A stretch of 64,000 nucleotides of DNA, taken from Escherichia coli. GTDB taxonomy: Bacteria > Pseudomonadota > Gammaproteobacteria > Enterobacterales > Enterobacteriaceae. Positions 2,960-55,063 of this stretch are shown here, piece by piece. Each line of letters begins with the position of its first letter. The first letter of the stretch is position 1. The DNA is taken from the NCBI RefSeq assembly GCF_003334305.1, contig NZ_QOWS01000007.1; one strand, 5' to 3'. The translations under genes were made by a program, and so were the position numbers. The notes under the pieces are model-generated. The model ran no database searches. It was not told where the DNA came from and worked only from the letters and a program-made list of their open reading frames with translations.

Positions 2960-3814
2960 ATGGCACTGCCAGTGAACAAACGCGTTCCCAAAATTCTGTT
3001 TATTCTCTTTGTTGTTGCCTTCTGCGTTTATTTAGTGCCGCGCGTTGCCATCAACTTCTTCTATTATCCTGACGATAAAATTTACGGTCCCGACCCCTGG
3101 TCGGCGGAATCCGTCGAATTTACGGCTAAGGACGGTACTCGTCTGCAAGGCTGGTTTATTCCTTCTTCGACGGGCCCTGCTGACAACGCCATCGCAACCA
3201 TCATTCATGCTCACGGCAATGCCGGAAATATGTCCGCCCACTGGCCGCTGGTCAGTTGGTTACCCGAGCGTAATTTCAACGTTTTTATGTTTGATTATCG
3301 CGGGTTTGGTAAATCAAAAGGCACGCCGTCCCAGGCCGGATTGCTGGACGATACGCAAAGCGCCATCAATGTGGTGCGCCATCGCAGTGATGTAAACCCA
3401 CAACGGCTGGTGCTGTTCGGGCAGAGTATTGGCGGGGCGAATATTCTTGCTGTTATTGGTCAGGGTGATCGTGAAGGCATACGTGCGGTGATCCTCGACT
3501 CCACATTTGCCTCTTATGCAACCATCGCCAACCAGATGATCCCCGGCAGTGGCTACTTACTTGATGAGAGTTACAGCGGCGAAAATTATATCGCCAGCGT
3601 CAGCCCGATCCCGCTTTTACTCATTCACGGTAAAGCTGATCACGTTATCCCATGGCAGCACAGCGAAAAGTTGTATAGCCTGGCAAAAGAGCCAAAACGG
3701 TTGATCCTAATCCCGGATGGCGAACACATTGATGCTTTTTCCGATCGCCACAGCGATGTTTATCGCGAACAGATGGTGGACTTTATCCTTAGCGCGTTGA
3801 ATCCGCAGAACTAA
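2960..3814 (+). CDS. yfhR: Putative alpha/beta-hydrolase (peptidase S9-like) with N-terminal membrane anchor YfhR, 284 aa
   Basis: ORF track 2933..3814; start moved to ATG 2960 (MALPVNKR...) which follows a GGAAAGG RBS; hydrophobic N-terminus and GQSIGG nucleophile-elbow-like motif. Confidence 0.8.
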   Translation: MALPVNKRVPKILFILFVVAFCVYLVPRVAINFFYYPDDKIYGPDPWSAESVEFTAKDGTRLQGWFIPSSTGPADNAIATIIHAHGNAGNMSAHWPLVSWLPERNFNVFMFDYRGFGKSKGTPSQAGLLDDTQSAINVVRHRSDVNPQRLVLFGQSIGGANILAVIGQGDREGIRAVILDSTFASYATIANQMIPGSGYLLDESYSGENYIASVSPIPLLLIHGKADHVIPWQHSEKLYSLAKEPKRLILIPDGEHIDAFSDRHSDVYREQMVDFILSALNPQN

Positions 3815-4004
3815 CCCATGATCGCTAGCACGATAATCATTCACAAAACCACCTTAAGACATGCTAATCCACTGGTCAGAACAGTTTAAGATGAGAAAAA
3901 TTCTGTGACGCTTGCCAACATTTCTGATGATTAGCATTCCCTTCGTCATTTCCCTGAGCAAACTTTAGCTATTCTTATCAATTATGCTTATGGGAGATCT
4001 ACAG

Positions 4005-5285
4005 ATGATGCCTACGCTTGCTCCACCATCTGTCCTTTCGGCTCCCCAGCGCCGCTGCCAGATCTTGCTGACGCTCTTTCAGCCGGGGTTGACCGCCACC
4101 ATGGCAACCTTCAGCGAGCTTAATGGTGTGGATGATGATATTGCCAGTCTTGATATCAGCGAAACAGGACGGGAGATCCTGCGCTATCATCAACTCACAC
4201 TGACGACTGGTTATGACGGTAGCTACCGGGTTGAAGGTACAGTGCTTAACCAACGTTTGTGTTTATTTCACTGGCTACGACGTGGTTTCCGTCTGTGTCC
4301 ATCATTTATTACCAGCCATTTCACCCCCGCCCTGAAGAGTGAACTGAAGCGGCGCGGAATTGCGCGTAACTTTTACGACGATACCAATCTACAAGCGTTA
4401 GTGAATCTCTGCTCCCGACGGCTGCAAAAACGCTTTGAAACGCGCGATATTCATTTCCTGTGTCTGTATCTGCAATATTGTTTGCTGCAACACCACGCTG
4501 GAATTACGCCTCAGTTTAATCCGCTCCAACGTCGCTGGGCGGAATCCTGCCTTGAATTTCAGGTAGCGCAGGAAATTGGACGCCACTGGCAGCGTCGGGC
4601 GCTCCAGCCTGTACCACCTGATGAGCCACTGTTTATGGCACTACTTTTTTCCATGTTGCGGGTTCCCGATCCACTGCGGGATGCGCATCAGCGAGACAGA
4701 CAATTGCGTCAGTCTATCAAACGTCTGGTAAACCATTTTCGTGAGCTGGGAAATGTTCGTTTTTATGATGAACAGGGGTTATGTGATCAGCTTTATACCC
4801 ACCTCGCCCAGGCGTTAAATCGCAGTTTGTTTGCCATCGGTATTGATAATACCCTGCCGGAAGAGTTCGCCAGACTGTACCCACGCCTGGTGCGCACCAC
4901 CCGCGCGGCGCTGGCCGGATTTGAAAGTGAATACGGCGTCCATCTTTCTGATGAGGAAAGTGGTCTGGTCGCGGTGATTTTCGGTGCCTGGCTAATGCAG
5001 GAAAACGATCTGCATGAAAAACAGATTATTCTACTGACCGGGAATGATAGCGAGCGAGAAGCGCAGATTGAGCAGCAGTTACGCGAACTAACGTTACTGC
5101 CGCTCAACATTAAGCATATATCGGTAAAGGCATTTTTGCAGACAGGCGCTCCGCGTGGCGCGGCACTGATTATTGCGCCTTATACCATGCCATTACCGCT
5201 CTTTTCACCACCGCTGATCTATACGGACCTGACGCTGACAACACATCAACAGGAGCAGATCCGCAAAATGCTCGAATCAGCATGA
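4005..5285 (+). CDS. csiE: Stationary-phase-inducible protein CsiE, 426 aa
   Basis: ORF track 3984..5285; start set to ATG 4005 (GGGAG RBS 8 nt upstream) matching the remembered 426-aa CsiE. Confidence 0.8.
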   Translation: MMPTLAPPSVLSAPQRRCQILLTLFQPGLTATMATFSELNGVDDDIASLDISETGREILRYHQLTLTTGYDGSYRVEGTVLNQRLCLFHWLRRGFRLCPSFITSHFTPALKSELKRRGIARNFYDDTNLQALVNLCSRRLQKRFETRDIHFLCLYLQYCLLQHHAGITPQFNPLQRRWAESCLEFQVAQEIGRHWQRRALQPVPPDEPLFMALLFSMLRVPDPLRDAHQRDRQLRQSIKRLVNHFRELGNVRFYDEQGLCDQLYTHLAQALNRSLFAIGIDNTLPEEFARLYPRLVRTTRAALAGFESEYGVHLSDEESGLVAVIFGAWLMQENDLHEKQIILLTGNDSEREAQIEQQLRELTLLPLNIKHISVKAFLQTGAPRGAALIIAPYTMPLPLFSPPLIYTDLTLTTHQQEQIRKMLESA

Positions 5286-7466: not shown

Positions 7467-7565
7467 CACCTTCCCCTTGTTATCGAAAAAACGTCTCAGC
7501 TGGTAGAAATTAACTATTTCACATATTAGCAACCAACCAGCAACATCCTTATGGCACAAAAATAG

Positions 7566-23943: not shown

Positions 23944-24221
23944 CCGCATCTCCTGACTCAGCTAACAATAAAATTTTTGGCCTTTATAGGCGGTCCTGTT
24001 GGACAACGGCGAACAGTATAACCGAATCATTGTGCGATAACAGGTCTTGACAAAGGAATTTACGCAAACGATTACCTTCAGGCTACGCAAGGCTTTGGAG
24101 AATAAAGAGCTTGCAACCGGAAACGGATTTCTTTTCAGGTTTGTGATGCAAATTTTTCACTTCATCACATTCTTTCTGAAAAACACCAAAGAACCATTTA
24201 CATTGCAGGGCTATTTTTTAT

Positions 24222-54903: not shown

Positions 54904-55010
54904 GTGATGCCTCCCCGGCAAAATTATTTGATTTGTTCAGCCTGTCGCGGCCAATTGGTAAAACCATTGTTGCTTGAGTGTATATATACTCCTCAACCAC
55001 CCTTGATTCT

Positions 55011-55024
55011 TTGATTTAAATCAA
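55011..55024 (-). promoter_or_regulatory. FNR binding site (promoter-proximal) in grcA promoter
   Basis: ttgatttaaatcaa = perfect TTGAT-N4-ATCAA FNR consensus. Confidence 0.8.
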
Positions 55025-55063
55025 TAAAAACCACACATCGATTGTGGTCGTAAATGGATTTTA

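Follow-up and report, generated by a model that had tools for sequence, protein, structure and literature searches.

The TGTGA box found at positions 3904-3919, upstream of the carbon-starvation gene csiE of Escherichia coli, would function as a low-affinity CRP operator with a single strong half, placed in a class I position relative to a sigma-S-type csiE promoter that lacks a -35 element. This reading, derived from comparative sequence data, is held here at a probability of about 0.7. The box appeared as the best candidate operator in the csiE promoter, much better than the site listed in RegulonDB at -42.5, because of its phylogenetic footprint, its fixed spacing to the sigma-S -10 and its class I-compatible position. 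We infer the binding of CRP itself to this box, and the CRP and sigma-S dependence of csiE is taken from the literature. Such control was already described in 1995. The gene counts among the recognised targets of CRP and its activation has been reported for both CRP and H-NS (PMC10301672), and its crp/cya-dependent expression is credited to Marschall and Hengge-Aronis (1995), as cited in that same paper.

The window, that is, the whole 64,000-nt stretch of E. coli chromosome analysed here, presents the gene order suhB-yfhR-csiE-hcaT. Of 5,426 complete E. coli genomes, 5,425 contained a match to the stretch 3600-4300, and the annotation of the matched region showed yfhR and csiE. Window coordinates correspond to MG1655 coordinates minus 2,661,430, a mapping that was checked on K-12; in MG1655, yfhR ends at 2,665,244 and csiE starts at 2,665,435. 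The yfhR-csiE intergenic region (3815-4004) comprises 190 nt, and K-12 differs from it at two bases only, 3946 and 3954. The csiE start codon given in Table 1 was considered right because its context, GATGAT (4004-4009), is conserved in the ortholog alignment and the in-frame upstream ATG at 3984 is not. A simple consensus scan of 3700-4150 revealed neither a terminator nor a sigma-70 promoter, and no terminator-like site was found between yfhR and csiE; the null sigma-70 result was not taken to speak against promoter activity, because a -35 is lacking both in activator-dependent promoters and in those of sigma-S. No Rfam family was recovered in 3600-4200, the sole match being a chance hit of 17 bits to a snoRNA family with a threshold of 90 bits, which was rejected as an RNA element.

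Table 1. Features of the yfhR-csiE region, in window coordinates.
Feature	Position	Strand	Remarks
yfhR	2960-3814	+	Co-directional gene upstream of csiE; stop ends at 3814
Conserved block AAAAATTCTGTGA	3896-3908	+	A-tract flank and consensus left CRP half; A3896 just under 90%
CRP-like 22-bp site TTCTGTGACGCTTGCCAACATT	3901-3922		Core 3904-3919, centre 3911.5
RegulonDB csiE CRP site ACATTTCTGATGATTAGCATTC	3918-3939		Listed as activator, centre -42.5 (Shimada 2011, Table S4)
Sigma-S-type -10 region TAGC-TATTCT-TA	3966-3977	+	TATTCT hexamer 3970-3975; TA opens A/T-rich discriminator
Curated csiE start	3971	+	A; MG1655 2,665,401 (ROSE paper, PMC10301672; Peano 2015)
Predicted start zone	3980-3984	+	Predicted from the -10 hexamer; 5-9 nt downstream of T3975
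Shine-Dalgarno GGGAG	3992-3996	+	8 nt before ATG; read from sequence; kept in closer genera
csiE CDS	4005-5285	+	426 aa; RefSeq ATG at 4005

The initial annotation of this DNA had pointed to a CRP-like half-site in the csiE upstream region, and the motif and its placement proved exact: tgtgacgcttgccaaca occupies 3904-3920, of which TGTGACGCTTGCCAAC covers 3904-3919, and lies 85-101 nt before the csiE ATG. Its description as a consensus TGTGA half followed by a degenerate second half also agreed with the count obtained here, in which the left half matches the consensus at 5/5 positions and the right half, CCAAC, at 2/5 against TCACA, keeping only C16 and A17, which stand at the correct N6 spacing from TGTGA. 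The annotation had further regarded the support from sequence alone as weak, and this judgement was borne out by the statistics of the single sequence. The window contained 153 occurrences of TGTGA-N6-TCACA with at most three mismatches (the csiE core has three), whereas shuffled sequences predicted 213. A symmetric 22-bp CRP matrix, with the consensus AAATGTGATCTAGATCACATTT, was then applied, its training set being the 81 RegulonDB sites also recovered by genomic SELEX, as given by Shimada et al. 2011 in their Table S4. The top match of this matrix in the window (55007-55028, TTCTTTGATTTAAATCAATAAA, 13.7 bits) corresponded to the listed yfiD/grcA site, which is CRP/FNR-like and served as a positive control. 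The site at 3901-3922 scored 6.33 bits, equivalent to the 11th percentile of the 81 training sites; 40 positions of the window scored at least 6.33 bits, against 54.7 +/- 7.5 in first-order Markov simulations, and the probability of at least one such match in a random 190-nt region of the same composition was 0.41. The single-sequence matrix match is weak and no better than chance.

The next-best CRP-like matches in the window were located at 24151-24172 (10.9 bits) and at 7505-7526 (10.5 bits), the latter sitting at the 5′ end of hcaR, in the hcaR-hca divergent region. Closer to csiE, two other matrix matches were discarded as operators: the one at 3964-3985 (7.1 bits) coincides in part with the -10, and its score derives from A/T-rich flanks, and the one at 3814-3835 (6.0 bits) shows no conservation beyond E. 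coli. A -35-like TTGCCA at 3912-3917 presented, by inspection, no usable -10 at 16-18 bp, and a minus-strand -10-like CAGAAT within the conserved block was set aside, the upstream neighbour being different between genera. The TGTGA box is also bracketed by a perfect 9-nt inverted repeat, ATGCTAATC/GATTAGCAT (3861-3869 and 3929-3937), within which an imperfect pair is nested (3876-3886 and 3917-3927). A repeat of this length is estimated to occur by chance about once in ten such regions, its left arms are not conserved outside E. coli, and the structure is probably a chance feature. A full-text literature search with the site sequence returned only an unrelated fungal paper.

The comparison among orthologs was based on a scan of one genome per species, which yielded 36 csiE loci whose products share 59% to 90% identity with the query CsiE. 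Among the genera represented were Escherichia, Citrobacter, Salmonella, Kosakonia, Leclercia, Enterobacter, Silvania, Cedecea, Dryocola and Buttiauxella. In the resulting alignment of 37 Enterobacteriaceae csiE promoters, drawn from about 15 genera, the mean column identity was 40%, and TGTGA was identical in all of them (37/37). Only three islands reached at least 90%: AAAATTCTGTGA (3897-3908); TTTAGCTA (3964-3971) together with CTTA (3974-3977); and the start codon region. The first of these is an uninterrupted run of 12 columns at or above this level, for which a rough calculation, given 35 such columns among 190, returned P ~ 3e-7. Moreover, the interval separating the T of TGTGA and the C of CTAYNCTTA, measured independently of the alignment, was 65 bp in 28 taxa, 66 bp in eight and 64 bp in one, with a single value (Intestinirhabdus) counted by hand from the alignment. 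Within E. coli, an identical 46-mer around the site was present in 4,483 of 5,425 genomes, and the two variants inspected both carried C3909T, a common E. coli variant that shifts position 9 towards the consensus, one of them also carrying G3890A, outside the site. Judged from these sequences, the conservation and spacing of TGTGA are far above chance. The CRP matrix scan that the initial annotation had named as a check gave a low score, by which the case would remain unproven, but the conservation among orthologs strengthens the CRP reading.

Outside Escherichia, the sequence located upstream of the csiE promoter is different (loci L006-L037), and in several Citrobacter and related genera it contains GC-rich hairpins followed by T runs, which are terminator-like and seemingly belong to another neighbour gene. 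One locus, from 'Citrobacter freundii' M-21 (L025), has ~125 nt inserted after the conserved -10 and ahead of the csiE start codon. With a CsiE sharing only 60% identity with that of E. coli and a Buttiauxella-like promoter sequence, this locus probably bears a doubtful taxon label.

When the full site was considered, scores given by the same CRP matrix spanned 0.7-11.9 bits among orthologs. The highest value was found in E. whittamii (11.9 bits), followed by three Citrobacter and a cryptic Escherichia clade (9.6 bits), C. sedlakii (9.4 bits), E. albertii (9.2 bits) and Salmonella (8.3 bits), and values of 0.7-2.3 bits were found in Kosakonia, Pseudescherichia, Pseudenterobacter and three C. 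amalonaticus-type genomes. In most relatives belonging to Escherichia, Citrobacter and Salmonella the full site reached 8-12 bits. The right half decays in distant genera. Its wider part (positions 9-22) scored a mean of -2.25 against -6.20 for random 14-mers from the same regions (Mann-Whitney p = 5e-6, a value overstated by the relatedness of the sequences), and much of this excess comes from the T-rich flank; the five right-core bases were marginally better than random (p = 0.04, uncorrected for related sequences) and did not outscore registers displaced by a single base. In the clade formed by Buttiauxella, Cedecea and Dryocola, TCA(N)A stands 5 bp, not 6 bp, from TGTGA (L021 for Dryocola; Buttiauxella and Cedecea loci L022-L037), and a compensating indel holds the 65 bp to the -10; in Dryocola the site reads TGTGAGCCAGTCACA, a perfect half pair with a 5-bp spacer. 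Since the right half is marginal across species, it is overwhelmingly the left half, together with its 5′ flank, that is under constraint. A clade-specific palindrome, TTCCTGAAGGAA, was also observed between the TGTGA box and the -10 in Kosakonia, Leclercia, Enterobacter soli and Silvania (L016-L020 and L024), and it is absent in E. coli.

This 5′ flank bears directly on who reads the conserved block. The sequence AAAAATTC (3896-3903), directly 5′ of TGTGA, shows 90-100% conservation along most of its extent in the 37 taxa; positions 1-3 of the site and the A-tract are more conserved than the CRP matrix, which holds little information there, would predict; and the C at site position 3 is invariant, at a frequency of only 0.10 in real CRP sites. 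Such constraint would be expected if AAAAATTCTGTGA were read by a factor other than CRP, or by CRP in combination with something else (candidates being another transcription factor, an A-tract of the alpha-CTD/UP-like kind and an intrinsic bend); CRP would then control csiE indirectly or from elsewhere. We regard this alternative, the main rival of the CRP reading, as unlikely, even though the failure of distant genera to maintain the right half speaks for it as well, because TGTGA is the most informative half-site of CRP, the closer genera keep YCA at N6 spacing with 8-12 bits, and the box occupies a canonical class I position; in addition, csiE is genetically CRP-dependent according to the 1995 study, as cited in PMC10301672, and no alternative factor with a matching motif could be named. 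The alternative also draws on the lack of a CRP signal at csiE in genomic SELEX and ChIP-exo. Genomic SELEX with purified CRP missed 103 of the RegulonDB targets, csiE being one of them, a group to which the authors of the SELEX study attributed poorer CRP boxes, and a csiE entry was not found in the supplement of a Crp ChIP-exo study. On the reading of the box as a CRP operator, its low affinity would explain the absence from both SELEX and exponential-phase ChIP data, and would fit a gene induced only at high cAMP-CRP. The conservation of AAAAATTC may then reflect DNA bending, contact with the alpha-CTD or binding of a second factor.

The second conserved island contains the predicted -10. 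Nine bases are invariant in the 37 taxa (T3965, T3966, C3969, T3970, A3971, C3974, T3975, T3976 and A3977), and only the -10 and -9 positions, the two least informative, vary between genera. The element carries TNGC with -13C, T-12, A-11, T-7, C-8 and T-6/A-5, followed by an A/T-rich discriminator (TAGC-TATTCT-TATCAA, 3966-3981), and no TTGACA-like hexamer was found 16-18 bp upstream of TATTCT. A TNGC motif with -13C, the lack of a -35 and an A/T-rich discriminator have been described as features of promoters preferred by E-sigma-S (Maciag 2011, PMC3141248), with an average discriminator length of 6.1 bp (PMC3141248). Occupancy data from the literature include a sigma-S ChIP-seq peak over the csiE promoter (old coordinates 2663364-2663501; PMC4447067) and the ChIP-chip regions RNAP_1247, SigD_1076 and SigS_586 over the same promoter (PMC3923258). 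No csiE transcription was obtained in vitro with E-sigma-70 alone (PMC10301672), which is consistent with activator dependence.

The curated transcription start is placed differently. A3971 occupies the -11 position within the conserved TATTCT, inside the hexamer and 9-13 nt upstream of the predicted zone, and not about 7 nt downstream of the conserved -10 hexamer. The hexamers assigned to it, TTCCCT-18-AACTTT (PMC10301672), are poorly conserved in the alignment, as is the other -10 given in the literature, CAAACT. The ROSE authors reported that the 2,665,401 start appears in two in vivo datasets within +/- 3 nt (PMC10301672), which lends it weight. Neither a full-text coordinate search nor the supplementary data of the ROSE paper, of Cho 2014 and of Kim 2012 gave a csiE start other than the curated one. 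These observations suggest either two overlapping promoters ~11 bp apart, both facing the CRP box from the same side of the helix, or a curated coordinate that is off.

The geometry of the putative operator depends on which start is adopted. Its centre at 3911.5 corresponds to -59.5 from the curated start, and to ~ -70.5 from the start predicted by the -10 (-71.5 in the 66-bp taxa). CRP sites of class I are centred near -61.5 or -71.5, and those of class II at -41.5. Both centre positions of the csiE site are class I-compatible, and the two frames are about one helical turn apart. Activator sites of CRP are listed at -59.5 for tnaC, aldA and fadD, and at -70.5 for malT, fur, epd and nagB (Table S4, Shimada 2011). 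The initial annotation had proposed that the motif agrees with what is published on the dependence of csiE on cAMP-CRP and sigma-S, and this is supported by the presence of TGTGA in 37/37 promoters, the fixed spacing to the sigma-S -10 and this class I position.

Known promoters offer parallels to this arrangement. As proposed for csiE, malT (CRP at -70.5) and lac P1 (-61.5) present a single upstream CRP site and a poor or absent -35, the site being centred near -60 or -70 on one and the same face of the helix; moreover, the sites of malT (TGTGACACAGTGCAAA) and araC (TGTGACGCCGTGCAAA) combine a strong TGTGA half with a degenerate second half in which C16-A17 are kept. In comparison with class I promoters, however, the right half of csiE is weaker (CCAAC), CRP binding is something we infer, and the core is sigma-S-type and not purely sigma-70. 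The carbon-starvation gene csiD resembles csiE, as read here, in having CRP ~68-71 bp upstream of the start (-68.5 in csiD) and a sigma-S -10 with -13C. csiD is reportedly exclusively sigma-S-dependent, whereas csiE is reportedly only partly so and is also bound by the sigma-70 holoenzyme; with the curated start of csiE, moreover, the CRP position would be -59.5.

The csiEp site of RegulonDB concerns the same promoter, the same regulator and the same claim, but a different 22-mer, 17 bp downstream of the TGTGA site. If this curated model were right, CRP would act from a class II-like position at -42.5 (3918-3939) on the start at 3971, and TGTGA would be conserved for some other reason. The model has behind it the curated entries themselves, for the site and for the start at 2,665,401, and the moderate conservation of CATT(T/C)CTG, inside the listed site, from Escherichia to the Leclercia group. 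It is nevertheless very improbable, since the listed site scores -3.72 bits, and 1.0 bit at the best nearby register (a 2-nt shift), below almost all training sites, with no recognisable CRP motif at -42.5. Besides, its CRP-like half-sites, TTTCT and TAGCA, are not kept in distant genera, where they change to CCGTA and similar sequences, and it partly overlaps the much better TGTGA site. The RegulonDB-listed 3918-3939 is probably not the operator. Finally, that TGTGA is a functionless chance match, as the chance-level statistics of the single sequence would allow, is effectively refuted by its identity in every promoter of an intergenic alignment with 40% identity and by its fixed spacing to the -10.

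The preferred reading, in which TGTGA is a class I CRP operator, can be formulated as follows. The CRP site would be separated by 65-66 bp, or about seven turns of the helix, from a downstream -10 of sigma-S type without a -35, a promoter that would be unusable unaided. When carbon is exhausted and cAMP levels rise, the CRP dimer would anchor mainly on the invariant TGTGA half and bend the DNA, and its activating region would recruit the C-terminal domain of RNA polymerase's alpha subunit, as either the sigma-S or the sigma-70 holoenzyme. A broader proposal, to which we give somewhat less than even odds, is that the curated model (start 2,665,401, -10 CAAACT, CRP at -42.5) is wrong or incomplete and that the layout conserved in evolution is instead csiD-like. 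In that layout, a TGTGA-dominated operator would lie ~70.5 bp upstream of the start implied by TATTCT, and AAAAATTC would be a further determinant, as a bend, an alpha-CTD contact or the target of a second factor, letting a very weak CRP site work selectively in carbon starvation.

The value of these results is mainly curational, consisting of a probable correction of the position of the csiE CRP site and of an inconsistency flagged in its transcription start. The consequence for biology at large is small, csiE being a long-known cAMP-CRP/sigma-S target. If confirmed, csiE would be the second example, after csiD, of a sigma-S promoter driven by CRP from about -70, an arrangement that bears on the role of activator position in sigma-factor selectivity.
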